A stretch of 64,000 nucleotides of DNA from a virus (IMGVR_UViG_3300010356_002264); one strand, 5' to 3'; shown: positions 227 to 62,593, numbered from the stretch's first letter. Program-made: numbers and translations. The notes: generated by a model not told the origin, from the sequence alone.

Positions 227-250
227 TTCAGAGCTGACGTCAGCTCTGAA
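227..250. promoter_or_regulatory. 24-bp perfect palindrome formed by two back-to-back TCAGCTC promoter elements for divergent genes
   Basis: TTCAGAGCTGACGTCAGCTCTGAA between ATG 186 (-) and ATG 278 (+). Confidence 0.75.
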
Positions 251-277
251 TCACCGAGAACCCTCGAAGGCTCCGCC

Positions 278-2296
278 ATGAGCACAACAACCTTGGACGA
301 CCTCCTCAACGAGGCCCTGCCCCTGTGGGGGGACGTGGCGGGGCTCATCCAGCAGGATGGGCCCGTCAAGCACTACACGGTGAGCTCCTGGGAGGCGGAG
401 AAGCACGCCAAGGACCTGTCGGAGAGTCGCTTGGATGACCCGTCAGGGCGCACCACGTTGCTGCTCCTGCGGGGGCTGGTGTCCCACTACCTCCAGTGGA
501 GCAAGTTGTCGGTCTGGGACCTAGTAAAGAACTACGACGCGATGTCGCCGGTCATCGAGCGGGGGCGCAAGCTCCTCGCGCTCATCGACCATCCGGTCGC
601 GGCGGCGGAGGTGGCGGCGGCGCGAGCGGAGGTGGCGGCGGCGTGCGACCACTACGAGCTCACCCCTGGCCAGCGCGAGAAGGTCCTCGCGTTCGACGAC
701 TACGCGCTCGGGCTGCTCTCCTACCACGCGAGTCGGTCGATGCGTCGTCTGTCCCGCCACGACTTCGCGCAGGCGGAGCCCTCCGCGGAGCGGCCCGGCT
801 ACAATCGCCAGGTCTACGAGTTCTGGAACATCGCCTCAGTCGTGTGCGCGCTCGCCGAGCAGCGGGTGTCGGGCGTGACGCTCGTGATGTTCCGCGACCC
901 CGAGGGCACGTTCCGCAGCTACTTCGCGCTCGCGGTTCGCCACGGGGGGACCATCACGCTCTTCACCGACCGACCGAACCACCCGCACCCGGACTTCGCC
1001 AGCATGACGCGCCGGCCGGACCGCGACCTTGAGCGGCGTGCCGAGCAGCACTGGTTCCCCTACGACCTGCTCGGACTCGTCAAGCGCGAGGACCCAGGCA
1101 GTGTGTCGGGAGCCGCCCGGTTGTTCGAGGGCCCGCAGACCCAGGTCGCGCGCGTCAACACGGTCGGGGTGCCGATCCGTGAGGTGCGCGACCTCCAGCC
1201 GGAGCAGTTCCTGTGGCTCATCCACGTCTTTCGTCACATCGTGGACAAGTGCCTCGCGGGCGAGCGGACGGAAAGTATCTCCTACACGGCCAACATGATC
1301 CGCGCCCCGCTGGAGCTCGCCGAGCGGTCGGCCGCCCTCATGGTGCCGGGGGCCTACGAGCCGCTTGCGCTCGCCCCGCTCACTAAGGCCGACCTCGCGC
1401 CCGAGGCGCTCGCCCCTCAGTGGGAGCGCCCGTCGACGGGGTTCAACCGCTGGATGGTGGACCGCTACGGGGCCGAGGTGCCCGACGTGGTGTTCAACGT
1501 GGTGAGCGTGGGAGAGGCGGATCAACTCCTGCCAGCCATGGAGGAGCAGGGTCTGCTACAGCGCACGACCGACCCTTGGGGGAAGGTCGCCCCGAACCCC
1601 CTCCGAACCCTCGGGGCGAACGACTTTGGGACCGCCGCGTCCCTCGACCGCGACCGCAGGTGGTGCGCGCGTGTGAACCAGTGTCGCGTCATCCAGCGGC
1701 TCGCCGTGCGGGAGTTCCAGCAGGACAAGGAGGTGACCCTGGACTGGTACCGGCGGGCCCTCGTGAAGAATCGAGATCGCCTTGTGCAGGCGGTCGCGGA
1801 AGGGGCCCTCGTGCTCCCTTCCGTTCGCTTCGAGGGCTGCTCAGACGACCCGCAGGCCGCCAACCGGAACACGGTAAAAGTCGGGACGGGCAGGACCTAC
1901 GGGGATGCCTTCCCTGGTAGCTACGGGTTTATGGGCGAGGGGAAGCTGTCCGTGTGGTCACGGTCAGACGGTGGCCGGTACCTGTGCGCGGATCGACAGG
2001 TCGTGGCGAGCGTCTTTGGGACTCTCTCGCCTACCTGCCCGGAGGCGCTCGCCGCCCTCTGTGGGGTGGAGGTCCGCGACCTCCCCTGGGGGCTTCAGCA
2101 CTGGTACAAGGGAGCCCCCTACTACGGCAACAGCATCCTGGACCGTCTCGACCCTGAGGACTGGGTGCTCAGTAATCCCTGGCTCAAGCTCGACCTGCGC
2201 GTCATGGTCGCCCTCTCGCGCACGGCCTACAAGGAGCGGCGCAAGCGCGTCGGGCTCGACCCCCTCGGGGTGCTCGCTGAGCCGAGGAAGAGCTAG
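278..2296 (+). CDS. Hypothetical protein (~672 aa)
   Basis: Long ORF with GC3-biased codons; ATG 278 is 38 nt after the TCAGCTC motif. Confidence 0.75.
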   Translation: MSTTTLDDLLNEALPLWGDVAGLIQQDGPVKHYTVSSWEAEKHAKDLSESRLDDPSGRTTLLLLRGLVSHYLQWSKLSVWDLVKNYDAMSPVIERGRKLLALIDHPVAAAEVAAARAEVAAACDHYELTPGQREKVLAFDDYALGLLSYHASRSMRRLSRHDFAQAEPSAERPGYNRQVYEFWNIASVVCALAEQRVSGVTLVMFRDPEGTFRSYFALAVRHGGTITLFTDRPNHPHPDFASMTRRPDRDLERRAEQHWFPYDLLGLVKREDPGSVSGAARLFEGPQTQVARVNTVGVPIREVRDLQPEQFLWLIHVFRHIVDKCLAGERTESISYTANMIRAPLELAERSAALMVPGAYEPLALAPLTKADLAPEALAPQWERPSTGFNRWMVDRYGAEVPDVVFNVVSVGEADQLLPAMEEQGLLQRTTDPWGKVAPNPLRTLGANDFGTAASLDRDRRWCARVNQCRVIQRLAVREFQQDKEVTLDWYRRALVKNRDRLVQAVAEGALVLPSVRFEGCSDDPQAANRNTVKVGTGRTYGDAFPGSYGFMGEGKLSVWSRSDGGRYLCADRQVVASVFGTLSPTCPEALAALCGVEVRDLPWGLQHWYKGAPYYGNSILDRLDPEDWVLSNPWLKLDLRVMVALSRTAYKERRKRVGLDPLGVLAEPRKS

Positions 2297-2950
2297 ACCC
2301 AGGGTAGCGAGCACGGGCGCGCACGCCTGCGTTCCCGCGCAGCGCGCGGCCGTCTCGGCCAGGGAGGTCGATCCAGGTTCCCGCTCGTACCTGTAGACGG
2401 CGTCGAGGTCGGTGAAGGCCCGATCGAGGTCGTCGTTCACCACGCGGTAGCGGTAGCTCGTGTGGTGTCGGAGCTCCTCGGGGGCCTTAGCGAGACGACG
2501 CGCGATGACCAGGTCGGAGTCGGTGCCTCGTGACCGGAGGCGCTGCTCCAGGACCTGCATCGAGGGGGGCAGCACGTAGACGAGGAGCGTCTCGTTTGGA
2601 AACCGGTCTCGCAGCTTTCCTGCGCCCTGGTTGTCGACCTCCAGGACGACGTCGCGCCCCGCCTTGACGGCCGCTGCCAGGGGCTGAACGGCGGTCCCGT
2701 AGCGGTGCCCGTGCACGACGCACCACTCCGCGAAGGCGTCCTGCGCGACCATCACGTCAAAGTCGTCCTCACTGACGAAGTGGTAGTCGACTCCGTCACG
2801 CTCTCCGCGCCGTGGCCGGCGCGTCGTGTGCGATACGGAGAACAGGAGGTCCTCGTGCGCACCAAGCAGCCGGCGCGCGAGTGTGGTCTTCCCGCCCCCC
2901 GACGGAGACGATAGGACCAGCAGCATCCCGCGTCGCGTCATCCCGCGCAT
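1964..2950 (-). CDS. gmk: Guanylate kinase; the C-terminal extension is probably not real
   Basis: SSPSGGGKTT P-loop, SVSHTTRRPR, GVDYHFVS and HGHRYGT motifs; kinase domain ends near 2390; tail overlaps the convergent gene. Confidence 0.9.
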   Translation of the reverse strand: MRGMTRRGMLLVLSSPSGGGKTTLARRLLGAHEDLLFSVSHTTRRPRRGERDGVDYHFVSEDDFDVMVAQDAFAEWCVVHGHRYGTAVQPLAAAVKAGRDVVLEVDNQGAGKLRDRFPNETLLVYVLPPSMQVLEQRLRSRGTDSDLVIARRLAKAPEELRHHTSYRYRVVNDDLDRAFTDLDAVYRYEREPGSTSLAETAARCAGTQACAPVLATLGLALPRLSEHPEGVEPDALAPLLVGRAREGDHDAQVELEPGITEHPVLRVETVQDAVAVVGGSLVPVLKPPGEVADLHPTEGGERLRAGRRESPKDARHDLSIRAQVPATV

Positions 2951-2993
2951 ACTACCTCAGCTCTGATTGTGGGTGGAGGTTCGTAAGGAGGGT

Positions 2994-3284: not shown

Positions 3285-3323
3285 TCTCAGCTCCGGACGT
3301 GCGGGTCCGGGTACATGGTGACT

Positions 3324-4358
3324 ATGCTCACACCCACCCGCAAGCTCGCCTCGATCCAGGTGATCGAGGGCTTCGACCCTATCCCGAACGCCGACGCCAT
3401 CCTGCGCACCCGCGTGCTCGGCTGGACCCAGGTGGTTCGCCGTGACGAGGTCGAGGCGTTCCGCGCCTCCGACAACCTCTGCGTGTTCTTCGAGATCGAC
3501 GCCCAGCTTCCAGACGGTCCCGCGTGGTCGGAGTTCATGCGCAAGCACGGCTTCGTGGTGCGTACCGTGCGGCTGCGCGGAGTGCTCGCCCAGGGGCTCG
3601 CGCTGCCCGTCTCGATCCTTGGGGAGGGCCCTGTGCCCGCCGTGGGTACCGACGTGTCGGAGCAGCTTGGGGTCACGCACTACGAGAAGGAGGTGCCGGA
3701 CGACCCACGCATCTCGGGTCCCTTCCCGCCGCTCGTCCCCAAGACCGGGGAGCTGCGCCTCCAGTCGTACCCCGCGGTGCTCGACGACCTCCGGGGACAC
3801 GCCTTCTACGTGACGACCAAGATCGACGGCGTGTCGGGGACCTTCTTCCAGCCGTTTGACGGGTCTCCACTCGTCGCGTGCCAGCGCAACTGGTCGGCCG
3901 CTCCTGGGGACCATCCCATCTGGCGGGTCGTGGACCGCTACGACCTCCGCGTCATGATCCCGCCCGGCCTGGCCGTGCAGGGGGAGATCGCCGGCCCTGG
4001 CGTACCGGGCAAGAAGAACCACCTTGGGCTCAAGGAGATGGAGTTCTTCGTCTTCCGCGTCTACGACGTGCGCAGGGACCGCTTCTTCAACTACTACGAG
4101 CTCGTCGCGTTCTGTCGCGACCGGGGCCTCCGCATGGTGCCCGTCGAGCGCGTCGTGGAGGGACGGGAGGCCGTCGAGTATCTCCACACCTTGGAGGGGT
4201 GGCTCGCCGCGGCGCGGGGCTTCTACGAGGGTACGACGCACCGCAAGGAGGGGATCGTCGTCCAGACCATCGACGTCGTTCGGTCGGAGGCTCTCGGCGG
4301 CTCTCGCCTCTCGTTCAAGGTCATCAACAACGACTTCCTCCTCAAGGAGCAGGCATGA
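3324..4358 (+). CDS. RNA ligase, DRB0094 (Rnl5-like) family
   Basis: N-terminal KLASIQ..PIPNADAI and LRGVLAQGL; nucleotidyltransferase motifs TKIDG, QGEI, KEGIV, SFKVINNDFLL. Confidence 0.9.
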   Translation: MLTPTRKLASIQVIEGFDPIPNADAILRTRVLGWTQVVRRDEVEAFRASDNLCVFFEIDAQLPDGPAWSEFMRKHGFVVRTVRLRGVLAQGLALPVSILGEGPVPAVGTDVSEQLGVTHYEKEVPDDPRISGPFPPLVPKTGELRLQSYPAVLDDLRGHAFYVTTKIDGVSGTFFQPFDGSPLVACQRNWSAAPGDHPIWRVVDRYDLRVMIPPGLAVQGEIAGPGVPGKKNHLGLKEMEFFVFRVYDVRRDRFFNYYELVAFCRDRGLRMVPVERVVEGREAVEYLHTLEGWLAAARGFYEGTTHRKEGIVVQTIDVVRSEALGGSRLSFKVINNDFLLKEQA

Positions 4359-4906: not shown

Positions 4907-5991
4907 CCGATCCCCATCTGGCGCAGGGCCTTGCGGTGGCGCGCGGCACCCAACTCGTCTCCCGTCGAGGCCAGCAGGTCGGGGGACCACAGGGGGACAC
5001 CGATCTTAGCTGCGATGCTCGTCAGTACCGCCGCAGCGTGCGCGGCGCTTTCCACTGTGGGGGAGTGGATGACGAGGCCCCCCTGTAGAGAAAGGGTCTC
5101 GTCAGGGTTGAGCGCGGGCTCCTCGGGGACACGCATCGTGACCGACCACACCTCGATGTGCAGACCCGCCTCGCGAAACTCCTCCGTGACCTGCATGGCG
5201 ACACCAGCGGACACCGCACCCCCATACACTTTGTACATGGTGTAGTTGGCGGGCTCTAGGCACTGGAGGTAGCGAAAAACTGCGGGAGGATCTTCGTCTG
5301 ACGTCCAGGGCATACCGGTGAAGAACTTGTTGTTGTAAACCTCGTCGCACAGGACTACGTCGCCGAACTGGCAGGGGCCGTCGTAGCGAACCACCGACAG
5401 GACGCGAGCCCGCACGGGGTCCATCCACTGCACCCACACTTTCTCGCGGGTGTACCGGTTTCCTGACAGGGGGACGTCCATGAGTGCCACCCCCTTGTCC
5501 CTTCGCTGGCTAAGCAAGCCCGTCTCCGTCCACAGCCGTTTAGCTTCCGTCACGTTGTTGAGGGCCACGTAGGCAAGGGCCAAGTTGTGCTTGGCCAGGC
5601 GCAAGCACTCCGCGGATAGCGTCTTGAGGTCGATGGCCTTCTTCAGGAGGTCGACTACCTCCTGCCACTTGGCCTCGGGTTTTCGCAGCAGGACCGCCAG
5701 GTTGTAGTAGGGCACCGCCCAGGTAGGGTCGGCGGTCATGGCGGCACGAAAGCGATCTTCCTTGCCCGGGGAGTCGTCCAGGATTCCGGCCAGGTTGAGC
5801 AGGCGAGCTTGCGCGAGGTCGCTGTAGGAGCGGCTCGCGATCATCCGGCGCAGGAGCGAGAGCCCCTGTTGCTCGGTCGCGCACTTCTGCATGGTTTCGA
5901 GCGCCTGGGTAAGCACCTGCGTGGGATGCTGCGTGGGATGCTGTGGAGTTGCGGGAGCTTCGCGTCCCACCAGGCGTAGTAGAGAGGTCAT
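4903..5991 (-). CDS. TPR-repeat protein
   Basis: YYNLAVLL / KHNLALAY TPR-like helices; motif 37 nt upstream. Confidence 0.7.
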   Translation of the reverse strand: MTSLLRLVGREAPATPQHPTQHPTQVLTQALETMQKCATEQQGLSLLRRMIASRSYSDLAQARLLNLAGILDDSPGKEDRFRAAMTADPTWAVPYYNLAVLLRKPEAKWQEVVDLLKKAIDLKTLSAECLRLAKHNLALAYVALNNVTEAKRLWTETGLLSQRRDKGVALMDVPLSGNRYTREKVWVQWMDPVRARVLSVVRYDGPCQFGDVVLCDEVYNNKFFTGMPWTSDEDPPAVFRYLQCLEPANYTMYKVYGGAVSAGVAMQVTEEFREAGLHIEVWSVTMRVPEEPALNPDETLSLQGGLVIHSPTVESAAHAAAVLTSIAAKIGVPLWSPDLLASTGDELGAARHRKALRQMGIG

Positions 5992-6016
5992 GTGAGCCTG
6001 TCGATAAAACTAGGGA

Positions 6017-9000
6017 TTATGGAGCTGACGGGTTCGCAGCTAGCGCCTGCGCCACGGCCTCCTGCGCGAGCTCGACGAAGAAGTTGGCCCCTGTGGAGTC
6101 GAAATCCGCGAGCCCTCCCGTCTCGTCCCCATCGACCATCTCGGCCGCCCGCATCTTGCGGGCGATGAGGCGCATCGCGACCTCCTGCATGGTGGCGCGA
6201 TAGGCGAGGAAGACCACTCGGATCGGAGCCACCTGACCAAGCCGCCAGGAGCGGCGCACGGACTGTCGAAGGATGGGGACCGAGTACTCGGTCCCGTACT
6301 GGATGATCGTCTTGGCGAAGAGCAGGTCGAGGCCCGTCTCGACGAGACGGCCGTTGGTGAGCAGGACGTCGAACCCGCGCTTGCACGCCTTCTCCAGCCA
6401 CTCCTCACGCTTCTCGGGGGACACGCTCGCGTCGAGCACTTCGACGCGGAATCCCTCAGCCTCTAGGGCCTCGCGGACACGCCCTCGCGCGTCCCTCTTG
6501 TGGGTCTGAGCGAAGAACACGAGGACCTGTCGTCCCGCCTGCTTCTCCTCCCGTACGATGCGCACGACCTCCGCGTCCTTGGGTTGCGGGGTGCGCGGGA
6601 AGGCGGGGGCGCTCGCCAGGAACTCCCGGCGGCCCGACTCCTCGTCGGTCCCCCAGATCTCCTCGGCCTGCTCGGGGCAGTCGGGGTAGCCAAGGCACGT
6701 CTGGAGGTACTGGCCGAGCACCTTGGGGTACTTGCGCATGACCTTCCGGACCTCCTTGGTGAGCTCAGCGATCGCCCGGAGGATCGCTGGGTCGTGGTCG
6801 ACGATCCTCACCTCCTCGTCATACGGGGGGAGGTCCTGACGAAGGTCCTTGAGCTTGACGAATATCGTGTAGGGCAACAGCAGGGGGACCATCGCGGGGT
6901 TCATCCCCGGGATCTCCCTGGTCCGTCCGCCCGATCGCTTCCCTCCTCGACGGGTCCCGTAGCGGGAGGTCGAAGACTTGAGGTCATAGCGTGTCTCGAA
7001 GAGCCCGAAGTGCTGCGAGAAGCGCGCGCAGTCCTTGAACCCGTAGCGCTTACGGAACGAGGGCTCCACCTTGTAGAGCAGGTAGAACAGGGAGCTCGCG
7101 CGCCCGCCGTACAGGGTGCCGGTCATCGCGAGGATCTTGTGCGCGCCGGCCGCGAGGTCCTGTACGGCCCGCGACTGGTCGGACTCGGCACCAGCGAACT
7201 TGTGGCAGTTGGACACGAGGATCCCCTCGACGAAGTAGCAGTGCGTGTCCTCGACCTCCAGGTCGTAGACCCACTCCTCGTCGAGATTGACGGGTTCTAC
7301 CGAGGTGACGCGGACGCCTCGGCATCCCGGATACGCATCAGGACGAGGTCGATGTTCGTCGTGACCTCCGAGTTCCAGAACCGCAGCACGGTCCACCCGA
7401 GCGCTTGGAGCATGCGACTCTTCCGTCGGTCCCGGTTGCGCTGCTTGCTCGTGTGGTGGGAGGCTCCGTCGCATTCCACCGCGATCTTCAGGGTCGGATG
7501 AATGAGGTCCACTCGCGCCATTCGCCAGGATGGATCCATCGTCGGGATGCAGCCCTCCATCTCCCAGCCCAGACGGGCGTGCAGTAGCTTCTGCTCTGGT
7601 GTGAGGTATCCGTTCCCGCCCCTGCGACCGGAGAACGGAAGACCCTTTCGGGCTTCGCTCGTCTTCGCTCGGACCTCGGGACTTCTGTTGAGCTTCGTCA
7701 TCCACTCCGACGACCGCTTCCTCGCCTCGGGCAGGCGCTGCGTTGTCCGCATGCGTTCCCGTGTCTGGGTGCGACGAGCGGGATTGCGCGCCCAGGCCGC
7801 AAGCTGGGTACACGACCGACTGCAATAGCGCCGACCCCTCTTGCGTGCGGGAACCTGTTCCGTCTTCTGACACCACCCGCACGTCACAGGGAACCGACGC
7901 GTCGGACGCTTGGGTGTAGGTCTCGTCCGGCGACGAAGCTGCGCGCCGCAGATCGGGCTGCACGTCTTCTGCTCGCGCCTCGCCCGTCGCACGAACGGGA
8001 ACTCGGACTTGCAAATAGGGCAAGCCTTGGTCGGCATCGTTGATCTCTATCAATACGTTTGTATTAGTGAGACACCGTGCCTTCCTGTAGTCAAGCTGGT
8101 CCTCCGTCCAGATCTTGTGGTCGTCGGTACAGACGATGGATCCCGTCTCATGTGAGACGCGCACCATGGGTTTGACCCTCGGCTTGCAAAGGGCACGCAC
8201 GACTCGACGCAGCACGACCTGTCCGTCTCGTGTTCTCGACCACACGAGGTCACCGACCCGTATGTCCTTGATCGGGATGCGTCCTCTCGACGTACTTACT
8301 AGGCTGGCCCCAGGGAAACACTCGTCCACGACGAGCACGTACCGGCGCGCGTATCGCTGACTGATGTACTCGGCCAGCGGCCAGCGGGTCGATCCCTTGT
8401 CGTTCAGGGTCGTCACGGTCCAGAGGGGGGACCGGCAGCCGGCGCAGTACTGGTGGTTGTCGCGGTCGAACGCTGCGGCCGTGTAGCCCGTCGTTCGTCC
8501 GCACTGCGGGCAGGAAACGAGGCTCACGATCTGGCGCACCTGCTTGGTGATCGTCCTGCGCGCGTAGAAGGGAAGCGCGTCCATCGCCTCGTGGTCCGGG
8601 ACCTCACGCATCCACGTCCTGGTGCGCAGCACGAAGGCAGGCTCCCATCGTGTTCCGAGCTTGGCGATCTCCTTGGAGATCACGAGGTAGCGAGCCGGCT
8701 TCGCCTCGGTTGACCGAAAGAATGCGTCCACGTCGGAGAGCTTCTTGCCCGCCACCGCAACGCCACGCTGGCCGGTGACCGCCTCGAACTCTCGGATCCA
8801 CTTGCGTACCAGGTGCGCGGGACAGACCACGACGGTGCGGCGTGCCCCGTACAGCTCGACGGCGACGGCCGCCATCGAGGTGTTGTGGGTCACGATGTAG
8901 TCGTCGGTGACGTACAGGGAGTTACGGCTCGATACCCTGATGCACTGACACTCCTCGTCCCTCACGTAATCGACGTTCTCGATCGAGCGGGAGGGCCCGT

Positions 9001-11233
9001 ACTTTGTTCCAGGTGAGTAGGTAGCCAGTTTTCGCGCGAGGCGGAAGGGCTGGATGTCCGGGGGAAGCGTGATGTAGAGACGGTACGCCGTCTGACCCTG
9101 CCGTCTCTCCCCGTTGTAGACGTAGGTCGTCTCCTTGGGAGCCATGGTCACGACTCCCCCGAGGGATTGGGCGAGCTCGCGGACGTGACGGGCGAGCTGG
9201 ATCGAGACGGACGTGTACTCGACGCCTGTCCCTCTCTCGTTCGCGATACCTCCGTCGGTGTCGAGTAGTCCCTGGAGGAGCGCGACACGTACCTCGACGC
9301 TGTTGTACAGGTACAGGGGAGGCACGAACTTGTGCTCGCTGCGCTTCCCGAACAGATCCAACCGACGCAGCGCCCGCGTGACGGGGTTGCGTTGCCCCCT
9401 CTCCACGACGAGAGAGTAGTCGTAGGGTGAGTTTTTTACGGGCGCGATCGATACGTTCGGAGGCAGTAAGGGTTCGATGAGTCGCAGGATCTGCTGGTCT
9501 CCCGTAGAGAGGCGAACACTGCTCGTAAGCCCTCCGTCTCCAAGGAGTACGCCGAGCAGGTATGGGTCGAGGAGGACTGGAACCTCCTCGAACTCTACGG
9601 GAGCCACCAACGGGATGAAGTGTTGTCGGTTGCCGTTCGCGTGGTGCAGGCGTTCGCGGATCTCCCTGAGCGGTAGCACGCGAGGGGCTTGGTCGCGCCA
9701 CTTGCGCAGGGGCGTGTTGACGAGCCACAGGTGGTCGTCGCAGCACTCCGTCGAGGAACCGTCGCAGAACGTGACTCGGTAGACGGGCTTGACGCCCTGC
9801 GGGAATACGCCCTCGATCGTCGCCGTTCCCCCGTCGGGATCGATGACCGAATCTCCGACGCGCAAGGCCCCCATGGTTCGCCATCCCGTCGGAGTGAGCA
9901 CCTTGGCGGTGAGCGGTTGGGCCTTCCCCGTCCCCATCTCTCCCGACAGGATGGCGGTCTTGTGGGGCTTGCGGGTCGGGCTCCCGCGCCACTGGAAGCA
10001 GACGGCGGCGGCGGCCTCCTTCTGGACCTGGAGGATCTCGGGCTGCGCGTGGCCGGGCAGAAGGCCGGGGGCGTGAAGCTGGACGAGGCGGTTCGCATAG
10101 GGTGCGAGGTTCCCGTCGAACTCCGGCGTGTGGAGCTTGCGGGTGGCCTGCGCGAGGTCGGCGCCGTACTCCTGGAACCACGCGGCCGTCTTCTCCGGAG
10201 CGTCGCTCACGCGCCAGGCATCGAAGTCACCCGTGCGGAGGTCGAGCACGGCCAGTCGGGAGGCGACGCGCTCGCGGTCGACGACCGTATCGTCTCCTCC
10301 TCCCGCCTTGTCCTCCTCGACGATCGTGTCGGTGACCTTCTCGCTCGACCCCTTGATGAGGTAGCACCCGCGAATCTCGGCCCCGTTGAGCGCCCCAGCG
10401 GCGAGGAGCATCGCCTGGTGGCCCGGCCTGGGGGGCATGAGGGGCCGCTCGATCTTGTTGCCCGCGTGTCCGACGAGTGCGTCCCACGTGGGGGTCGCGT
10501 AGGCCCCGGTGGGGGCGGGGCCCCACGCGGGAGCCAGGTCGAACGGGTTTATCCCGTGGAGTGCGAAGAAGTCTAGGGAGGTGGCGCTGACGTCGATAAC
10601 CTCCCCGTGCTTCGTGTAGGGTTCGTCCCCGATGACGGGGATGTGCTCCGTGTTGATCGGGTTGGCGTAGCTGTAGCCGGAGGAGCGACGTGCCAGCACG
10701 ACGACCTGGTCGAACTTCTCCCTCTCGGGGAGGGGGTAGTCGAACACGCGCGCGCCGTAGTAGCGCCCCTGCATGAACTCCTTGAACTTCGTGTTTCGCA
10801 GGATGGCGCGGGGCACGATGAGCACGAGGAGGCCGTTCGGCGCGAGGTGAACGGTCGCCGCCTGGAGGAACAGCACCTCCAGGCGCACCGAGTTTCCCTC
10901 TCCGTCCTGGCCCGCGTCGTACGGAGGGTTGCAGAACAGCACGTGGAAGCTCCCCTCGCTCGCGTGTAGCTGCGTGTAGCTGCCTCGCAGGCACTGTCGC
11001 ATGCGGGGACGCGCGACTTCCGCACGCTCGGCGTCGAGCTCTACTCCGTACGCCTCGAATCCCCAGGCGGCGGCGAGCGCCGAGACCGCACGTCCTTCCC
11101 CCGCGCACACGTCGAGGATACGGCCCACCTGGCCCGCGGGTGCGCGCACGGTGATGGTACGCACGATCCGCGCGGTCACGTCGTCGGACGTGGGGTAGTA
11201 GAGCGCCTTGGCGATAGCGGCTAAGCGAGCCAT
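6017..11233 (-). CDS. DNA methyltransferase-like (DUF6094-type) domain fused to an SF2/SNF2-like helicase; contains two inteins
   Basis: YYPT, DVCAGEG, NPPY; after intein removal GEMGTGK|T, DE|CH, MTGT, ETGLDL, QSVRRSWRLGQ. Confidence 0.9.
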   Translation of the reverse strand: MARLAAIAKALYYPTSDDVTARIVRTITVRAPAGQVGRILDVCAGEGRAVSALAAAWGFEAYGVELDAERAEVARPRMRQCLRGSYTQLHASEGSFHVLFCNPPYDAGQDGEGNSVRLEVLFLQAATVHLAPNGLLVLIVPRAILRNTKFKEFMQGRYYGARVFDYPLPEREKFDQVVVLARRSSGYSYANPINTEHIPVIGDEPYTKHGEVIDVSATSLDFFALHGINPFDLAPAWGPAPTGAYATPTWDALVGHAGNKIERPLMPPRPGHQAMLLAAGALNGAEIRGCYLIKGSSEKVTDTIVEEDKAGGGDDTVVDRERVASRLAVLDLRTGDFDAWRVSDAPEKTAAWFQEYGADLAQATRKLHTPEFDGNLAPYANRLVQLHAPGLLPGHAQPEILQVQKEAAAAVCFQWRGSPTRKPHKTAILSGEMGTGKAQPLTAKVLTPTGWRTMGALRVGDSVIDPDGGTATIEGVFPQGVKPVYRVTFCDGSSTECCDDHLWLVNTPLRKWRDQAPRVLPLREIRERLHHANGNRQHFIPLVAPVEFEEVPVLLDPYLLGVLLGDGGLTSSVRLSTGDQQILRLIEPLLPPNVSIAPVKNSPYDYSLVVERGQRNPVTRALRRLDLFGKRSEHKFVPPLYLYNSVEVRVALLQGLLDTDGGIANERGTGVEYTSVSIQLARHVRELAQSLGGVVTMAPKETTYVYNGERRQGQTAYRLYITLPPDIQPFRLARKLATYSPGTKYGPSRSIENVDYVRDEECQCIRVSSRNSLYVTDDYIVTHNTSMAAVAVELYGARRTVVVCPAHLVRKWIREFEAVTGQRGVAVAGKKLSDVDAFFRSTEAKPARYLVISKEIAKLGTRWEPAFVLRTRTWMREVPDHEAMDALPFYARRTITKQVRQIVSLVSCPQCGRTTGYTAAAFDRDNHQYCAGCRSPLWTVTTLNDKGSTRWPLAEYISQRYARRYVLVVDECFPGASLVSTSRGRIPIKDIRVGDLVWSRTRDGQVVLRRVVRALCKPRVKPMVRVSHETGSIVCTDDHKIWTEDQLDYRKARCLTNTNVLIEINDADQGLPYLQVRVPVRATGEARAEDVQPDLRRAASSPDETYTQASDASVPCDVRVVSEDGTGSRTQEGSALLQSVVYPACGLGAQSRSSHPDTGTHADNAAPARGEEAVVGVDDEAQQKSRGPSEDERSPKGSSVLRSQGRERIPHTRAEATARPSGLGDGGLHPDDGSILANGASGPHSSDPEDRGGMRRSLPPHEQAAQPGPTEESHAPSARVDRAAVLELGGHDEHRPRPDAYPGCRGVRVTSVEPVNLDEEWVYDLEVEDTHCYFVEGILVSNCHKFAGAESDQSRAVQDLAAGAHKILAMTGTLYGGRASSLFYLLYKVEPSFRKRYGFKDCARFSQHFGLFETRYDLKSSTSRYGTRRGGKRSGGRTREIPGMNPAMVPLLLPYTIFVKLKDLRQDLPPYDEEVRIVDHDPAILRAIAELTKEVRKVMRKYPKVLGQYLQTCLGYPDCPEQAEEIWGTDEESGRREFLASAPAFPRTPQPKDAEVVRIVREEKQAGRQVLVFFAQTHKRDARGRVREALEAEGFRVEVLDASVSPEKREEWLEKACKRGFDVLLTNGRLVETGLDLLFAKTIIQYGTEYSVPILRQSVRRSWRLGQVAPIRVVFLAYRATMQEVAMRLIARKMRAAEMVDGDETGGLADFDSTGANFFVELAQEAVAQALAANPSAP
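7208..8320 (-). mobile_element. Intein 2 (371 aa) inserted in the DExH motif; no in-frame endonuclease motifs recognisable
   Basis: DE|CFPGASLV...CTDDHKIW...WVYDLEVEDTHCYFVEGILVSN|CH. Confidence 0.9.
7297..8037 (-). CDS. Zn-finger plus Vsr/DUF559-like endonuclease, nested out of frame inside intein 2
   Basis: CxxC / CSxxC repeats; DLIHPTLKIAVECDGASHH...DRRKS..LQALGWTVLRFWNSEV; own ATG and TAG. Confidence 0.85.
   Translation of the reverse strand: MPTKACPICKSEFPFVRRARREQKTCSPICGAQLRRRTRPTPKRPTRRFPVTCGWCQKTEQVPARKRGRRYCSRSCTQLAAWARNPARRTQTRERMRTTQRLPEARKRSSEWMTKLNRSPEVRAKTSEARKGLPFSGRRGGNGYLTPEQKLLHARLGWEMEGCIPTMDPSWRMARVDLIHPTLKIAVECDGASHHTSKQRNRDRRKSRMLQALGWTVLRFWNSEVTTNIDLVLMRIRDAEASASPR
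8882..9922 (-). mobile_element. Intein 1 (347 aa): Ala-initiated, class-3-like, with LAGLIDADG endonuclease, inserted in Walker A
   Basis: GK|AQPL...DHLW...ECQCI...VTHN|T; LLGVLLGDGG and LLQGLLDTDGG. Confidence 0.9.
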
Positions 11234-11789: not shown

Positions 11790-11933
11790 GCCTCCCTGTC
11801 GCGATGAGGTCGCGGTTCAGAGCTGACGCACTACTCGGCTTCGGATTGTGTGTTTTTTCAGCTCTTTTTTCAGAAAACTATTTGACAGTATGCCGAACAA
11901 GTGGTTACTTCATTCACACGTAGCGAGAACGCC

Positions 11934-13958: not shown

Positions 13959-13994
13959 CAGCTCCAGATTCACGCTGGGTCGCGACGACCCGGC

Positions 13995-52045: not shown

Positions 52046-52279
52046 CTAGCTCCGCTTCTCCACAACCCATCCCGTGTCCTTCTTGACGAGGACCGCCACG
52101 GGTTTCCCGCTCTTGTCCCACGCGGTGAAGGCCGCGCGGTCGTGGTCGTCCATCGAGAAGTAACCGCGACACGCAGTCCTGATCCCCGCCTGGGCAAGTA
52201 CCGGGGCAATCTTCTTGGGAATCCCGTTCGTGGGAGTCTGGAAGTCTGGCTGCGGTTTTGAGGTGGGACGCTTTGCCAT
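52046..52279 (-). CDS. Hypothetical protein
   Basis: Motif 37 nt upstream. Confidence 0.6.
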   Translation of the reverse strand: MAKRPTSKPQPDFQTPTNGIPKKIAPVLAQAGIRTACRGYFSMDDHDRAAFTAWDKSGKPVAVLVKKDTGWVVEKRS

Positions 52280-52337
52280 GGGGATGAGTCGCGAACAAAA
52301 CACGGATTGGAGCTGATGTAGCTGGGTAGGGTGGGGC

Positions 52338-52769
52338 ATGACGACTCCCAACCCCGTGACCCTCACCCCAAAAGACCTCTCCCCCTACCGTGCCTACCTC
52401 AAGGGCCGCATCCTCACCGCGCTCAGCCTGCAAGGCAACGAGCAATGCGACATGAAGGGCGTTCACCTGGCGGTCCAGGCGGACTGCCTGGCGGCCCACC
52501 TGTCGGAGGAAGCCTCGATCGCCCTGACGATCGGGGTCACCCAGTCGTCCTCGGAGCCCGTGCTCTCGAAGGCCATCATCGAGACGATGGTTGCTGCCTG
52601 CATGGAGAAGGCTTCCAAGGAGCCGAAGACGCCCGGCACCAAGCCTCTGACGCCCGCCAGCAAGACTGCGACCGCCCGCGTGGGTGGTCTCCCCGCGGGT
52701 AGCCAGCCGGCCGCCCCGGTGGCGAAGCGTGGCCGCCCAGCGAAGTCCGTGACGACTCCCGCCGTCTAG
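52338..52769 (+). CDS. Hypothetical protein with AT-hook-like tail (KRGRPAK)
   Basis: ORF; GC3 bias. Confidence 0.6.
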   Translation: MTTPNPVTLTPKDLSPYRAYLKGRILTALSLQGNEQCDMKGVHLAVQADCLAAHLSEEASIALTIGVTQSSSEPVLSKAIIETMVAACMEKASKEPKTPGTKPLTPASKTATARVGGLPAGSQPAAPVAKRGRPAKSVTTPAV

Positions 52770-52966: not shown

Positions 52967-53386
52967 CTAGCTGGGGTTTTGCTTGCATGTGATGCGTGCC
53001 AGCCACCAGTCTCCGACCCCAAGGGCCTTCCCGACAGCATCTCCGTGCGTTGTTTTCGGGTGGGGGATGTACTCACTTGAGCAAGAGATGTTTTTGTTGG
53101 GATGCTTTTGGCGCAGGAATGTCTGCATGTCCATCTTCGCAGTGTCTCGGTTGTCGTCGATCGCTTTGTCGCAATCTTTGTTCTCAGCAGGCTGGAACCG
53201 AAACTCAAGCTCGAAGTTGTATTGCCTGACCCCGTCGTCGTCCGTGTAGTTGTACTCGGTGGTGACGTCCGGAGTGCAGGATTTCAGAATCGCCCTGAAC
53301 GCAGGAGTATCAGGGAGATCTGGGCCACATCCGGGTACGACGAAGAGGCATAGGGTTAGAAGCAGGAGTTTTAGAGCGTGTCGCAT
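52967..53386 (-). CDS. Putative lipoprotein
   Basis: Signal peptide ending VPG-C; motif 38 nt upstream. Confidence 0.6.
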   Translation of the reverse strand: MRHALKLLLLTLCLFVVPGCGPDLPDTPAFRAILKSCTPDVTTEYNYTDDDGVRQYNFELEFRFQPAENKDCDKAIDDNRDTAKMDMQTFLRQKHPNKNISCSSEYIPHPKTTHGDAVGKALGVGDWWLARITCKQNPS

Positions 53387-53503
53387 GCGTCCTCGGAGTT
53401 TGGTCCTGTTGAACTCGGAGCTGAACGATTGAAACTACCAAGTAGTTTGTGTGGTTCGCGAGGATAGCTCAACCCCAAGCTAAATTTTGGTCGCAGTTGG
53501 CGA

Positions 53504-54028
53504 TCAGCAGGTGCAGTCGCAAAGGAACTCGTTGCAGTCGAGGCAGTGCCCGTCGTCCTCGCCCTCGCCCTCGTCGGGGCAGTCGCACTCGGCAATGAAG
53601 TTCTGACAGCGACGGCAGTGTCCGTCATCCTCGTCCATTCCGTCGTCGTCCGTGTCGAGGCAGCCCTCATGGACCGTCCCGTTGGGCCCCGACACCCCGT
53701 CACCGGGGTTGATGGGGTCGCCGCATTCGGGGCACGACTCATGAAGCCCGTCCTCGACCGACATGCAGTCGAAGTGGACGTATCCACGTTCTCCGCACGT
53801 ACCGTCATCGCCGACCGGCTTGTCGCAGACGACACAGTCTTCGGGCACACACGCCTCGCCGTCCTCGTTGAGCGGGCATTCGCAGTCCTCGACCAGGATG
53901 CCGCACTCGGTGCAGCGGTCATCCTCGTCGATGCCGCGCCCTCCCGAGGGGGCCTTGGGGTCGTAGGAGACGTCCTCGACTCCGGCTTCGTCTAAGCCAA
54001 CTTCTTCGTCGCGGTTCGTTGTGCTCAT
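53504..54028 (-). CDS. Acidic, Cys-rich repeat protein
   Basis: Repeated CxxC...CxC and CxxC...HxxC; motif 37 nt upstream. Confidence 0.7.
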   Translation of the reverse strand: MSTTNRDEEVGLDEAGVEDVSYDPKAPSGGRGIDEDDRCTECGILVEDCECPLNEDGEACVPEDCVVCDKPVGDDGTCGERGYVHFDCMSVEDGLHESCPECGDPINPGDGVSGPNGTVHEGCLDTDDDGMDEDDGHCRRCQNFIAECDCPDEGEGEDDGHCLDCNEFLCDCTC

Positions 54029-54117
54029 GACTGGTAGTCGATTTGGTGGGTGGAAGTGGAGCTGATTATGTGCCAGGTGGGACAGCTCCAAGTTCGGTCT
54101 TTCGGCGACGGACTACC

Positions 54118-54546
54118 ATGAGCGACATCAGACGAGAGCGCGTCGAGAGTCCCACGTTCGGTAAGGGCTGGCTCCTCTGGCCGGGCCCGAACGACGGGAT
54201 GCGGTTCACCTTCGAGGCCGACACGGACGGGAGTACCTTCGCCCTGCCGGTGCGCTTCACGATGGACGTCGAGCAGGGTGTCATCACCACCGACTCGCCC
54301 CGGCGCCACCGGGACGTCGAGCGCGCGGAGGCGCAGGCGGAGGGCGCGCGCATCATGGCCTGCCTGGAGCAGGGCATCGATCTCGACCCGGACGACGAGA
54401 CGAGCCCGAGTCGTGACCCGTACCTCTACGACATGGACGAGAACACGCTCGTCTCCCTCATCTCCCGCGACCCGGACGGGGAGGTGTGGTTCACGCTGCG
54501 CACGGGCGGCGACGAGGTGTTCGGGTTCCGCAGGATAAGTGCTTGA
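54118..54546 (+). CDS. Hypothetical protein
   Basis: ACAGCTC 36 nt upstream. Confidence 0.65.
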   Translation: MSDIRRERVESPTFGKGWLLWPGPNDGMRFTFEADTDGSTFALPVRFTMDVEQGVITTDSPRRHRDVERAEAQAEGARIMACLEQGIDLDPDDETSPSRDPYLYDMDENTLVSLISRDPDGEVWFTLRTGGDEVFGFRRISA

Positions 54547-56104: not shown

Positions 56105-56337
56105 GGGGCGGGGAGCCGCAGGGTCTCCGGCAGCCCCCCCACTTCGTGCAGGCGCAGCAGGCGCAGCAGCGCGTTGGCCGAGTCGCAGTAGCTCTCGGCG
56201 GTCCGCCGCCGGGCCTCGCGCGTCTTGTCGGAGATCCAGCGGCCCTCTGAGGACTTCAGGATCGACAGGGCCCGGCTGCGGAGCTCCTGGAGGTGGTTGC
56301 AGAGGATCACCACGTCCTCGCTGGACAGACTTGTCAT
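56101..56337 (-). CDS. Hypothetical protein
   Basis: Motif 37 nt upstream. Confidence 0.6.
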   Translation of the reverse strand: MTSLSSEDVVILCNHLQELRSRALSILKSSEGRWISDKTREARRRTAESYCDSANALLRLLRLHEVGGLPETLRLPAP

Positions 56338-56562
56338 GACGGTATCGCGCGAGCGTTCCGCGGGGTGGAGCTGAGTGGGCGCGCAGGCACACGCGGCAGG
56401 TGGTCTGCTTCGGGTCCTCGGTGACCTCGTAGATGCGGTCGCCGATGAAGTTCTCCATCTCGGAGTCCGGCAGGCAGCGGGACCGCGTGCCCCACAGGCC
56501 GCAGGCCGTGTGGAGCATGGTGGACGCGGCCGGCGTGAGGAGGTGGACCTTCCCCCCGCGCC

Positions 56563-57243: not shown

Positions 57244-57287
57244 GGGTGACTAGGATACGTGGACGGAGATCTGAAGGGAGCTGTGGG

Positions 57288-58427
57288 CTACTGGTCCTCC
57301 TCGACCTCGCACGCCTCCATCGTCGCGCGCCACTCCTCCCACCGACGGCTCATGTCGACCACGTCCTGCGCCCAGATGCGCTTGATGATGTGGACTTCGT
57401 CCTCGGTGATGAGGGTGCTTCCTACCCGATGCTGAAGGTCGAGCAGGCGGTCGAGGATCTCCATGCGGGCCGTGATCGTGAAGGGTCCTGGCATGAGCTC
57501 GTCCTGGGAGAAGGTGACCGTCCCGTCTCGCTTCTCCGCCTGTCGCTTGGTGCGGTCGTGCTGGAGGTCGCGGATGTAGTCGCGGAACTCCCCGAGGTGC
57601 TCGTACTCCTCGAACCCCGCGTCGGCCATCGCCTCCCCGCTCTTGTCCCGCGCGACCACCGTGCAGGTCCAGCAGCCGAAGCGCGAGCTCCCCCCGCACG
57701 CGGGGGCCTCGGAGCGGTCCATGACGACCGGGCACTCGCCGGCCCCTGCGTTTCGGTACAGCGTGATGAGGTTGCGGTGCGACCCACCCCAGGGGACGGG
57801 CCGCTGGAGGAGAGTCGCCCATACCTCGTCGGTGTCGAAGCGCTCGATTGGTCGGAACACCATGCAACTCTTGAGGTTCTGGTGCGGGCTGAGCCGCTGC
57901 CCCTCGACCGTGTGGCGGTCGATCGTCTTGGCGCGGTTCGCCGACTCCGACCTGCGCACTCCGACGAGCAGGACCACCTGCCCGGCTGCCGACACCTGAT
58001 CGCGGACGAACCGCGTCGTCGGGCCGATCTTCATCCGGTCCGTACACCAGCGAAAGCGACGGTTCGGCGGTGGGTAGCCGCGCCCGATCAGGTTGCACCA
58101 GAAGGTCTGGTCGGCGGCCGGCGTGGTGACATGGACCGACATGGGGAGGCGGAGGGACTCCCCGGCTCGTCCAACCTTGTCCAGGGCCGCGCGCGTGTGC
58201 GTGATGAGCAGCGGGCTCTCCACCTGGGTGTCGTTGCACACCACGTGGACGCGACGCTGCCGGTCCGACGGCGCGAGGCTGAGCAACATCTCAACGACCA
58301 GGTGCAGCACGAGCGTCGAGTCCTTCCCCCCGCTGAACGCCACGATCCACGGGTGTTGGTGAGGCTGAAGGTACTCGTCGCGGAGTTCCGCGATGGCGTG
58401 GTCGATCCTATGCTTTGTGAGCAGCAT
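57288..58427 (-). CDS. dndC: DndC-like PAPS-reductase-family sulfurtransferase
   Basis: PWIVAFSGGKDS, NLIGRGYPPP..RFRWCTDRMKI, GVRRSES, RFGCWTCTVV..DKS. Confidence 0.85.
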   Translation of the reverse strand: MLLTKHRIDHAIAELRDEYLQPHQHPWIVAFSGGKDSTLVLHLVVEMLLSLAPSDRQRRVHVVCNDTQVESPLLITHTRAALDKVGRAGESLRLPMSVHVTTPAADQTFWCNLIGRGYPPPNRRFRWCTDRMKIGPTTRFVRDQVSAAGQVVLLVGVRRSESANRAKTIDRHTVEGQRLSPHQNLKSCMVFRPIERFDTDEVWATLLQRPVPWGGSHRNLITLYRNAGAGECPVVMDRSEAPACGGSSRFGCWTCTVVARDKSGEAMADAGFEEYEHLGEFRDYIRDLQHDRTKRQAEKRDGTVTFSQDELMPGPFTITARMEILDRLLDLQHRVGSTLITEDEVHIIKRIWAQDVVDMSRRWEEWRATMEACEVEEDQ

Positions 58428-58464
58428 GCCTGTAAGTCGAAGAGGCACGCTGAATATGAGCTGA

Positions 58465-60990: not shown

Positions 60991-61290
60991 CTAGCGAACG
61001 GGCCAGATGAACGCCTTGAGTTTGGAGATCCACGGGAGATCCTCCTTAGTGACGTACTCGCCCATCGATCGGGCCTCCGCGTGCAGCTTGTCGGCCAGGC
61101 GTCGAAGCTGGTCCTGCGTGTTGCGGGCCGCGCCGATCCGGGAGATGAACTCGTGGTGAAACATGACGGCGCGGGAGACCGCGCCCGCCAGGTGGTCGTG
61201 CTGTCCGCTGCGACGGAGCTCACGCTCCGCCTCCTCGAGGAGGCGGACGTGCTGCTCGTGGTCGAACTTGTCGTTGGGCTCTGTGGTCAT
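60991..61290 (-). CDS. Hypothetical protein
   Basis: Motif 37 nt upstream. Confidence 0.6.
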   Translation of the reverse strand: MTTEPNDKFDHEQHVRLLEEAERELRRSGQHDHLAGAVSRAVMFHHEFISRIGAARNTQDQLRRLADKLHAEARSMGEYVTKEDLPWISKLKAFIWPVR

Positions 61291-61330
61291 GCGGGAGGGT
61301 CGAAGGGATCCCCCCGCGCGGAGCTGATCG

Positions 61331-62176
61331 CTAGAGGGTGAAGCCGGCGAGCTTCTGGATCTCCCGGTCCAGCCGGTCCTTCTTCCGCTGGAGCGTGTCC
61401 TTTAGCCTGGCGATGGTGTCGTCGACGTTCTTGTAGAACTCGACGGCAGCCTTCTCGAAGTCCTCGAAGCGTCGCGGTCCCTGGGGGACGGGAGGACGGC
61501 CGTAGTTGTAGCCGTAGGACGGCACGGGAAGAGGCGCGGGAAGAGGCGCGGACTCGTACGCTGCGCGCAGGTCTTCCTTGAAGTGCTCGAAGCCCGCGCG
61601 TGAGAGGTAGGTGGTCCCGCTGCGGGGAGAGGCCGGCAGGTAGCTCCAGCGCTGAAGCTGCACGAAGTAGGTCTTCGGGAAGTCCTCGGGCTCGCGGGCG
61701 GTCTGCTGGTCGTACTGGCTGCGGGCCTCCAGGCCGTACTGGCCGATGTTCCCGCGGGCAGCCTGCGCGATGACTTGGTCCCGCGACAGGCTGACGTACA
61801 GGTGGCGCTGCGCCTTGCGAGCCTGGCGCGCGGCCTCGTTCTCAACGCCACCGAGGAAGATGTTGACGGAGCGCTCGAACCGTCCCCAGTCGGCGTTGCC
61901 GCTCGCGGCCCAGGCGGCCTTGAGGTCCTCCTTGAAGTGCTCGAAGCCCGCACGGGTGAGGAAGACATCCCCCAGGCGGCTGGGCATCTTCATGACGCGG
62001 AACTTGTGAACGCGCATGAAGTATTCGCCGGGAAAATCCTCCGGCGACCCACCGGGGCAGGTGCTTCTCCGCTTGAGGTACTCAGCGGGGATCAGGGTGG
62101 ACGGTTCACCACGACGGGCAGAGGCGGTCACCACCTCCCGCGTGGTACGCAGGGTCTGGGTCTTTCGTTTCCACAT
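61331..62176 (-). CDS. Hypothetical protein with internal duplication
   Basis: PEDFP..YF...RAGFEHFKEDL occurs twice. Confidence 0.7.
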   Translation of the reverse strand: MWKRKTQTLRTTREVVTASARRGEPSTLIPAEYLKRRSTCPGGSPEDFPGEYFMRVHKFRVMKMPSRLGDVFLTRAGFEHFKEDLKAAWAASGNADWGRFERSVNIFLGGVENEAARQARKAQRHLYVSLSRDQVIAQAARGNIGQYGLEARSQYDQQTAREPEDFPKTYFVQLQRWSYLPASPRSGTTYLSRAGFEHFKEDLRAAYESAPLPAPLPVPSYGYNYGRPPVPQGPRRFEDFEKAAVEFYKNVDDTIARLKDTLQRKKDRLDREIQKLAGFTL

Positions 62177-62205
62177 GGGGCTCTTTCTCCACCATGATTT
62201 CTAGC

Positions 62206-62225
62206 AGAGCTGTCTGACAGCTCTC
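62206..62225. promoter_or_regulatory. Back-to-back ACAGCTC elements, each 37 nt from a divergent ATG
   Basis: AGAGCTGTC-TG-ACAGCTCT; ATGs at 62176 (-) and 62255 (+). Confidence 0.8.
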
Positions 62226-62254
62226 CGCCCCTGTTCCTGATAGACTGCGCGCCC

Positions 62255-62593
62255 ATGGAGCTAGATCCCGTCCTACTAGAAGAGTCCATGCAGGCGCTGC
62301 GCGTGGACAAGAGCCGGCGAAGGCCCCCGCATGTGGACTCCGCGCACGCGGCCGACCGCGCGGTGCTGTTCAACCTCGTGTGTCCCGTCGGTACCATCGT
62401 TCGCTACTTCCCCATATGGGGGCAGTGGGACAAGTCCCAGACCTGTACGGTCTCTCGCAGGGCGTACCTGAGCGCATCCAAGGAGCCCGTGGTGTTTCTC
62501 GACGATGTGTCGGGGTGCGTGAGCGTGTGGAACTGCGAGCCCGTAACCATCCAACCTGCGGGGCAGGCCGAAGAATCGCGGGGGGCGGCATGA
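62255..62593 (+). CDS. Hypothetical protein
   Basis: FN..CPVGTIVRY; motif upstream. Confidence 0.65.
   Translation: MELDPVLLEESMQALRVDKSRRRPPHVDSAHAADRAVLFNLVCPVGTIVRYFPIWGQWDKSQTCTVSRRAYLSASKEPVVFLDDVSGCVSVWNCEPVTIQPAGQAEESRGAA

Follow-up and report, generated by a model that had tools for sequence, protein, structure and literature searches.

The 64,000-nt stretch of viral DNA considered here (IMGVR_UViG_3300010356_002264; "the window") carries a two-box motif, WCAGCTC-N18-CGAC, which recurs at a fixed distance in front of start codons. The window is contiguous DNA, which in the 7.2-Mb, 260-contig draft genome G000 is split over three contigs and corresponds to C103:26318-60668 plus, both in reverse orientation, C98 and the end of C242. 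Together with C37, these contigs form an element of 426 kb in total with a GC content of 66-69%. C37 encodes a head protease, portal, large terminase, sliding clamp, clamp loader and UvsX-like recombinase, and these head, terminase and replication genes, together with the other three contigs, therefore define the four as a giant, uncultured phage of roughly 430 kb. The remainder of the G000 bin is, judged from rpoC, a Verrucomicrobiota (Limisphaerales-like) metagenome-assembled genome (MAG); binning is its sole link to the phage, and its status as host is uncertain.

Among other products, the window encodes an RNA ligase, a DNA ligase of the ATP-dependent type, a UvrD-like helicase, a CCA-adding enzyme, a PAPS-reductase-like protein and a collagen-repeat protein, and five tRNAs lie within it. 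At 6017-11233 on the minus strand, a 1738-aa methyltransferase (DUF6094)-helicase fusion harbours inserted Hint/intein and LAGLIDADG domains. When 25 kb of the window was compared by megablast with plasmid and phage sequences, no match was found. The counts of leaderless and SD-preceded genes given below derive from a rough home-made gene call of about 504 genes.

In the window WCAGCTC occurs 42 times, compared to 21 +/- 3.9 copies in shuffled sequences, and WCAGCTC-N18-CGAC occurs 14 times versus 0.31 expected, a number reached in 0 of 100 shuffles. Half of the box copies (21/42) are followed by an ATG at exactly +37, where about 1.2% would be expected per offset (binomial P ~2e-29). Throughout G000 the histogram of TCAGCTC-to-ATG distances shows a single spike, with 94 sites at offset 37 and 29 at offset 38 over a background of about 10, and 86 of the 94 fall in the four phage contigs. 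An earlier note on this DNA, made from the sequence alone, had proposed plotting such a histogram and had made its reading depend, among other things, on enrichment of the spacing over shuffled controls; histogram and shuffles both came out in its favour.

The spacing is rigid and confined to the phage. TCAGCTC-N18-CGAC is found 58 times in the 426-kb phage versus 4 times in the other 6.78 Mb of G000, while the N17 and N19 forms are found once each in the phage (versus 11 and 3 times, respectively). TCAGCTC-N30-ATG yields 86 phage matches versus 8 elsewhere, and the control with the box in reverse complement yields 1 versus 10; with 1 reverse-complement match to 86 forward ones, the motif is therefore strictly oriented towards the downstream gene. 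A position weight matrix (PWM) built on positions -40 to -1 finds 135 sites scoring at least 14 in the phage versus 4.6 expected from the host-contig rate, and 33 sites scoring at least 11 in the window. About a fifth of the phage genes have the promoter at their ATG. A literature search on the motif returned unrelated primer matches only. The motif, its geometry, its statistics and its restriction to the phage are thus confirmed as a real observation far above chance.

The logo of 115 sites reads gTCAGCTCCg-N16-tCGACta-N5-C followed by ATG, with g-TCAGCTC-C-g at -38 to -29 and t-CGAC-t-a at -13 to -7, and shows no purine-rich Shine-Dalgarno (SD) box. The upstream, -35-like box is TCAGCTCC at -37 to -30, 17 nt before CGAC. 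Positions -12 to -9 are occupied by C, G, A and C in 85, 83, 92 and 83 of the 115 sites, which corresponds to a CGT/CGA-type -10 box, and position -1 is C in 98 sites (85%) and T in 16. Two boxes at about -35 and -10, separated by a rigid spacer, are thus present.

Scoring without the -1 column and without requiring an ATG identifies 128 strong sites, at which the predicted +1 codon is ATG in 90 cases and GTG in one; ATG lies at +2 in 6, and 31 sites have another codon. In this group of 31, 29 sites have a purine at +1 and 24 have a pyrimidine at -1, a pair typical of bacterial transcription starts and one for which these sites had not been chosen. Many of the 31 start exactly at an SD box, e.g., AGGAGGATATG (site 17707) or GAGGAACGAGATG, and others head non-coding units, including the tRNA units that follow the sites at 11858 and 13117, as the earlier note had pointed out. 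The position in front of tRNA units identifies the motif as a promoter and rules out a translation signal. The evidence supports, in silico, the proposal of the note that the motif is a -35/-10 promoter for an extracytoplasmic function (ECF)-like or phage sigma factor, with a predicted +1 on the A of the ATG.

It is very improbable that, instead of a promoter, the motif represents an operator present in many copies, a boundary of cassettes or of recombination, or a signal linked to translation and kept at a fixed distance. Such a view could draw on the box often lying directly behind the upstream stop codon, on cassettes that vary between relatives as at recombination joints, and on abutting inverted copies, whose -35 boxes form the palindrome GAGCTGA-CG-TCAGCTC at 237/240 and 62213/62217. 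Yet neither an operator nor a recombination site would be expected to be followed by another box after invariably 18 nt, to show pyrimidine at -1 and purine at +1 also where the ATG is missing, to be placed before tRNA genes, or to be strictly oriented. The window contains six divergent promoter pairs (231-246, 62207-62223, 48741-48761, 54059-54088, 36059-36109 and 11820-11864), and the two palindromic, abutting pairs would probably not be occupied by two polymerases simultaneously.

With the distance from promoter to ATG fixed at 37 nt, these mRNAs should therefore start at the start codon. We define leaderless genes as those with the promoter +1 within one base of the ATG (n = 96). An SD-like sequence at -18 to -4 precedes 3 of these 96 genes versus 152 of 385 motif-free genes and 14 of 23 genes with motif and leader, in line with the earlier claim that most motif genes lack an SD; the strong preference for AUG (90 ATG versus 1 GTG at +1) likewise fits leaderless translation. 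The upstream neighbour of such a gene lies at a median distance of 51 nt, little more than the length of the promoter. The first 42 nt of leaderless open reading frames (ORFs) are poor in G and fold weakly, with a mean of -6.0 kcal/mol; internal segments average -12.6, and the starts of other genes average -8.1 (P = 2e-5). Neither an IF3 nor an S21 encoded by the phage was found that might account for leaderless translation. As foreseen in the note, the promoter corrects ORF starts: promoter-defined and longest-ORF starts differ at several window genes or more, e.g., those at 278, 3324, 27266, 36140, 52279, 54028 and 58427.

The individual sites of the window illustrate these classes. Leaderless promoters on the plus strand are located at 13958-13997 (ATG 13995; 91 aa; PWM 24.3), 14230-14269 (ATG 14267; 154 aa; PWM 26.5), 23659-23698 (ATG 23696; 65 aa; PWM 18.4), 24715-24754 (ATG 24752; 145 aa; PWM 22.5), 29657-29696 (ATG 29694 of the ATP-dependent DNA ligase assigned by Pfam; PWM 23.3; kept in the relative L063), 36103-36142 (ATG 36140; 114 aa; PWM 21.1) and 46888-46927 (ATG 46925; 106 aa; PWM 25.9). 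The site at 2957-2996 (ATG 2994; 96 aa; PWM 12.0) has a weak -10 (CGTA), and a -35 box with a poor -10 at 3287-3326 (a regex match; PWM <11) precedes ATG 3324 of the RNA ligase (344 aa; Pfam RNA_ligase). Leaderless promoters on the minus strand lie at 5989-6028 (ATG 5991; 362 aa; PWM 23.6, exact CGAC), 11787-11826 (ATG 11789; 182 aa; PWM 22.0), 27264-27303 (ATG 27266; 104 aa; PWM 19.3), 34850-34889 (ATG 34852; 150 aa; PWM 26.3), 48708-48747 (ATG 48710; PWM 19.0), 52277-52316 (ATG 52279; 77 aa; PWM 26.7), 54026-54065 (ATG 54028; 174 aa; PWM 28.5), 56335-56374 (ATG 56337; 78 aa; PWM 17.1), 58425-58464 (ATG 58427 of the PAPS-reductase-like gene, 379 aa, Pfam; PWM 26.0) and 61288-61327 (ATG 61290; 99 aa; PWM 23.3), and an ACAGCTC variant with a weak -10 at 62174-62213 (ATG 62176; 281 aa; PWM 12.5).

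At five sites the ATG lies at offset 38, namely at 240-280 (plus; back to back with 237; ATG 278; 672-aa ORF; PWM 22.0), 32773-32813 (plus; ATG 32811; PWM 19.0), 36025-36065 (minus; ATG 36027; 196 aa; PWM 17.3), 53384-53424 (minus; -35 box with weak -10, regex match only; ATG 53386; 139 aa) and 62217-62257 (plus; ACAGCTC; back to back with 62213; ATG 62255; PWM 17.4). An ACAGCTC box at 54082-54120 (plus) has a 17-nt spacer to CGAC and its ATG 54118 at offset 36 (142 aa). The spacings listed in the earlier note thus stand with few amendments. Of its exact 37-nt sites one falls out, as the motif placed at 62218 really starts at 62217 with a spacing of 38, and of its 36- or 38-nt sites 39958 found no support, as it offers only a GTG without an ORF and its PWM score is below 11. 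Its estimate that about half of the sites have an exact CGAC ending 8 nt before the ATG agrees with 12 of 22 at -12 to -9.

Other sites have leaders or head non-coding units. Two that the note had singled out as starting short SD-containing leaders do so: the promoter at 198-237 (minus; PWM 21.8, exact CGAC) has its predicted +1 on the A at 200 and a 14-nt leader, ACAAGGAG..ATG, which opens with an SD (AAGGAG) before ATG 186, and the one at 17707-17746 (plus; PWM 27.8) would start on the A at 17744 and has an 8-nt, SD-opening leader, AGGAGGAT, before ATG 17752. Leaders also follow the promoters at 19335-19374 (minus; 16 nt; ATG 19321; PWM 14.6), 29031-29070 (plus; 10 nt, GAGGAACGAG; ATG 29078; PWM 20.7) and 48755-48794 (plus; short leader; PWM 25.5), the last of which precedes the UvrD-like helicase gene (Pfam UvrD). 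Two weak ACAGCTCC sites lie at 32325-32364 (plus; 42-nt leader; PWM 12.4; kept in L063 as site 1143) and 57245-57284 (minus; ATG 4 nt past the predicted +1; 226 aa; PWM 11.1).

The promoter at 11858-11897 (plus; PWM 18.3) serves a non-coding unit with a predicted +1 on the G at 11895, followed by a 34-codon ORF (11935-12038), a strong terminator hairpin (12066-12101; 16 bp, rich in GC and with a T tract) and, directly behind it, two tRNA-Glu genes, which a transcript from 11895 would reach. Between tRNA-Pro and tRNA-Val, the promoter at 13117-13156 (plus; PWM 15.6) has its predicted +1 on the A at 13154, where there is no ATG, and the transcript would enter tRNA-Val. Two mini-ORFs lie behind promoters. 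ATG 16461 of the site at 16424-16463 (plus; PWM 19.6) opens nothing more than a 9-codon mini-ORF (16461-16490), with the next ORF 61 nt downstream, and ATG 48710 opens a 37-codon ORF (48597-48710), whose stop overlaps the next start (ATGA). Both are possible leaderless mini-ORFs or coupling devices.

The distribution of the motif over the phage is uneven. In the co-directional block C37:68-128 kb, which contains the protease, portal and terminase genes, there is a handful of sites, mostly before small inserts on the opposite strand, and the replication block at C37:129-141 kb contains none; in agreement with this, the note had not found the motif before the putative virion genes. Many motif-free genes have GGGTA(G/T) 14-15 nt before an ATG or GTG, without a -35 box. 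In the phage contigs this element is found 18 times at offset 14 and 13 times at offset 15 from the ATG (background about 3), and in the host contigs no peak appears at 14-15 nt. It resembles a TAnnnT-like -10 with upstream Gs, as in the window at 19378-19394 and 52324-52340 (both plus), and precedes the clamp loader, an SbcC-like gene and a DNA methyltransferase among the TCAGCTC-free genes. GGGTA(G/T) is therefore a candidate for a second, -10-only class of leaderless promoters, which may serve genes expressed ahead of the sigma factor described below.

The search for a sigma factor or RNA polymerase advised by the earlier note led to a phage-encoded, ECF-like sigma. Sigma-domain searches of the whole bin found four candidates on phage contigs, and P0001 is the one that spans regions 2 to 4. 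This 257-aa protein is encoded at G000:C242:20701-21474, about 161 kb past the end of the window, and matches TIGR02937 at positions 24-164 (regions 2 to 4) with 25.2 bits. The profile of its family aligns with sigma-H (3mzy) over the whole chain (E = 1.9e-11); 15 and 12 of 62 family members match Pfam Sigma70_r2 and Sigma70_ECF, respectively, and one IMG record labels a member "sigma24 family protein". An AlphaFold2 model (pLDDT 88.9) comprises an N-terminal beta/alpha domain, sigma2 (88-175) and sigma4 (190-257), i.e., the ECF domain set of sigma2 and sigma4 without regions 1.1 and 3, to which a conserved N-terminal domain of some 85-115 aa is added. The sigma fold of P0001 is thus shown by profile, domain and model.

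The P0001 gene starts at a GTG behind an SD and lacks an upstream TCAGCTC promoter, which argues that another form of polymerase would make the protein first, before the putative regulon. Accordingly, the "early or middle" regulon of the note is best narrowed to middle in the sense of after the sigma has been made; the early half of the wording falls away.

A host alternative sigma of the ECF type, borrowed by the phage, is an unlikely reader, in which case P0001 would serve other promoters. The MAG holds about 30 sigma-70-family genes, CGAC/CGTC-type -10 boxes are typical for bacterial ECF sigmas, and the link between P0001 and the motif is an indirect one. However, a matching regulon is absent from the remainder of the bin: the 4 TCAGCTC-N18-CGAC matches in its 6.78 Mb all look intragenic and none lies upstream of a sigma gene, though ECF sigmas normally autoregulate, and, moreover, the MAG is tied to the phage by binning alone and may not be its host.

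Still less likely is a reading via another phage factor, that is, a protein with two sigma4 domains (C37:128340-128969), a sigma4-only protein (C37:97.6-98.3 kb) or an unrecognized phage RNA polymerase. Both sigma4 proteins carry significant Sigma70_r4 domains, and divergent phage RNA polymerases may evade Pfam. A two-box promoter with an ECF-like -10 requires a sigma2, however, which was seen in neither protein. The phage contigs yielded no second beta', no domains of an RNA polymerase and no T7-like RNA polymerase, the last being a weak negative, as the T7-type search matched nothing in control genomes. To our knowledge, the promoters of phage polymerases are single contiguous blocks or hairpins, which counts against a polymerase of this kind as reader of a two-box motif. 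The two-sigma4 protein (209 aa) is encoded beside a 218-aa product with a KOW-like stretch, which was read by eye and has no Pfam match; the two genes together occupy C37:128340-129634 (L001:8341-9644, minus), outside the window. The pair sits between the structural and the replication blocks and is a candidate late-gene regulator.

Relatives of the phage keep the design. When JGI metagenomes were scanned for exact copies of the pattern, most matches were isolated and due to chance, but fragments of two relatives, from two other metagenomes, were recovered as well. One, L063, is 82-86% identical to window 29629-33496; the other is represented by four short contigs from one metagenome (L079, L090, L098 and L099), of which three align to the phage at 69-75% identity and L079 does not align. 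All strong sites in these fragments have the ATG at +1 (7/7), and the L063 orthologue of site 32773 retains the box in front of a diverged spacer, with its ATG at 37. At C103:16.5 kb, phage and relative have the box after the same upstream stop codon, and the downstream cargo differs. The relatives differ by whole cassettes of promoter plus small gene at the same junctions (L063:1981 versus window ~31500; L098 versus G000:C103:16490-16750), and as with morons, these cassettes seem to carry their own TCAGCTCC promoter. Among candidate relatives that were discarded, UViG_3300009687_000006 (13 sites) is the same phage, being 99.9% identical to C37, and the loci reached by way of the DNA ligase and PAPS-reductase genes belong to unrelated phages without the motif.

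P0001 has more than 570 relatives at E <=0.001 among representatives of 50%-identity clusters, and its family is present on 66 IMG/VR contigs, many of 180-620 kb. The closest orthologues, P0003-P0005, are 63-83% identical, and P0006 is 41% identical. Relatives of the sigma were found neither in viral and metagenome contigs, by back-translated patterns, nor in 400 genomes of the phylum of the MAG. The family is uncatalogued, has no Pfam model of its own and is common in huge phages. One member is encoded by a huge-phage fragment (L217, IMGVR_UViG_3300023174_000096), which contains ten copies of cgattcttGGTTAC-N14-CTCCGTGGTG-N5-ATG (control 0). These lie at 12-19 kb of the locus beside the sigma gene, each before a small gene (45-135 aa); the consensus, GGTTAC-N14-CTCCGTGGTG-N5-ATG, is another one, and the rigid leaderless design is the same. 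The 485-kb phage LR745208.1, which encodes a distant homologue of the sigma, shows no fixed-offset motif in 40 kb, and fixed-offset signals in L210/L211 and L218 were rejected as promoters, as they are repeats inside genes.

Taken together, we favour, with a probability of roughly 65%, the view that the motif is the main non-structural, probably middle promoter of the ~430-kb phage, read by the host core RNA polymerase with P0001; the start positions, the reader and the timing are what we infer. The host core enzyme would carry the ECF-like P0001, whose sigma4 would bind TCAGCTCC at -37 to -30 and whose sigma2 would bind tCGACta at -13 to -7. Transcription would start at the purine 37 nt past the T of TCAGCTC. 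At about 75% of the sites this purine would be the A of the ATG, yielding an mRNA without leader or SD, whose 5' AUG the ribosome would bind directly. At most of the remaining sites, the transcript would start at an SD box (4-40-nt leaders) or head tRNA or non-coding units.

Several points weigh against assigning the promoter to P0001. By itself the protein stays below the curated cut-offs of Pfam and NCBIfam (TIGR02937, 25.2 versus 42.9; Sigma70_r4_2, 13.9 bits). The structural scores of the model (sigma4 versus CnrH, SigR, SigD and SigW, Z 8.1-8.8, rmsd ~2 Å; sigma2 versus RpoE 5uxx, Z 7.2) are near 8, a value reachable by chance for helical proteins, though essentially all top structural matches are sigma factors. 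The -35 box TCAGCTCC lacks the AAC (GGAAC-like) typical of ECF promoters, and, unlike usual ECF sigmas, P0001 is not autoregulated. The phage encodes two further sigma4-containing proteins, and the link of P0001 to the motif is drawn from its being the sole full-length candidate and from one analogous phage. Most other phages with a P0001-family sigma show SD-led genes or no signal in the 20 kb sampled. Finally, +1 is placed by geometry and base preferences alone.

More tentatively, and with the odds rather against it, the P0001 family might be a large, uncatalogued sigma family of huge phages, with private two-box, AUG-start codes in at least two lineages, which would give accessory genes a channel of expression of their own, possibly preceded by the GGGTAG class. 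If true, transcription and translation initiation of the accessory genome would run separately from the SD-dependent route of the host. The results assign a probable job to a widespread, unannotated family of huge-phage sigmas and provide a transcription map of about 130 promoters, derived from sequence, for a huge uncultured phage with mostly unknown genes, in which many start codons are corrected. As it pairs one sigma and one consensus with some 100 natural variants, the phage could serve as a test system for how an ECF-like sigma reads a -35 box without AAC and why a phage makes most accessory mRNAs leaderless.

Among known systems, the ECF (group 4) promoters of E. coli sigmaE, B. subtilis SigW, SigX and SigM and M. 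tuberculosis SigH and SigL are similar in having two boxes with a rigid spacer of about 17-18 nt. ECF promoters combine an AAC-containing -35 (GGAAC-like) with a CGAC/CGTC-like -10. The phage shares the -10, the start 7-8 nt after it (here predicted) and the sigma2 plus sigma4 core. It differs in the -35 box, TCAGCTCC without AAC, in the extra N-terminal domain of P0001 and in lacking autoregulation; likewise, no anti-sigma partner was seen, though no search was aimed at one. Moreover, most of the roughly 130 phage promoters have their predicted +1 on the start codon.

In phiYS40 and P23-45-like phages, host sigmaA recognizes the promoters, which have a -10 alone or an extended -10. These are large phages in which, as predicted for the phage studied here, most mRNAs of one temporal class are leaderless; the middle and late mRNAs of phiYS40, a Thermus phage, are described as mostly leaderless (PMC3594737, citing the primary work). 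In Deinococcus-Thermus, too, including the Thermus host, genes without a leader, with a -10 box at their head, are common (PMC12340547). In contrast, the present phage has a dedicated two-box promoter and its own sigma, and a signal of this kind is absent from the MAG binned with it. We know of no description of leaderless mRNAs in a Verrucomicrobiota-binned phage.

Phage sigma cascades are exemplified by SPO1 gp28 and gp33/34, T4 gp55 and the sigmas of "group 2" jumbo phages, which have no polymerase of their own (PMC13401047, PMC7824862). The likeness is that a phage lacking its own RNA polymerase would steer the host core by its own sigma to phage-specific promoters; the differences are that P0001 is ECF-like with an N-terminal extension, and that the mRNAs of SPO1, T4 and jumbo phages are leadered and SD-dependent. 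Phage sigma cascades and leaderless phage mRNAs are thus each already known, and what is unusual here is their combination and its regularity: a divergent sigma with an extra domain as the probable reader, and about 130 two-box promoters of ECF geometry that lack AAC in the -35 and of which some three quarters have their predicted +1 at the start codon.

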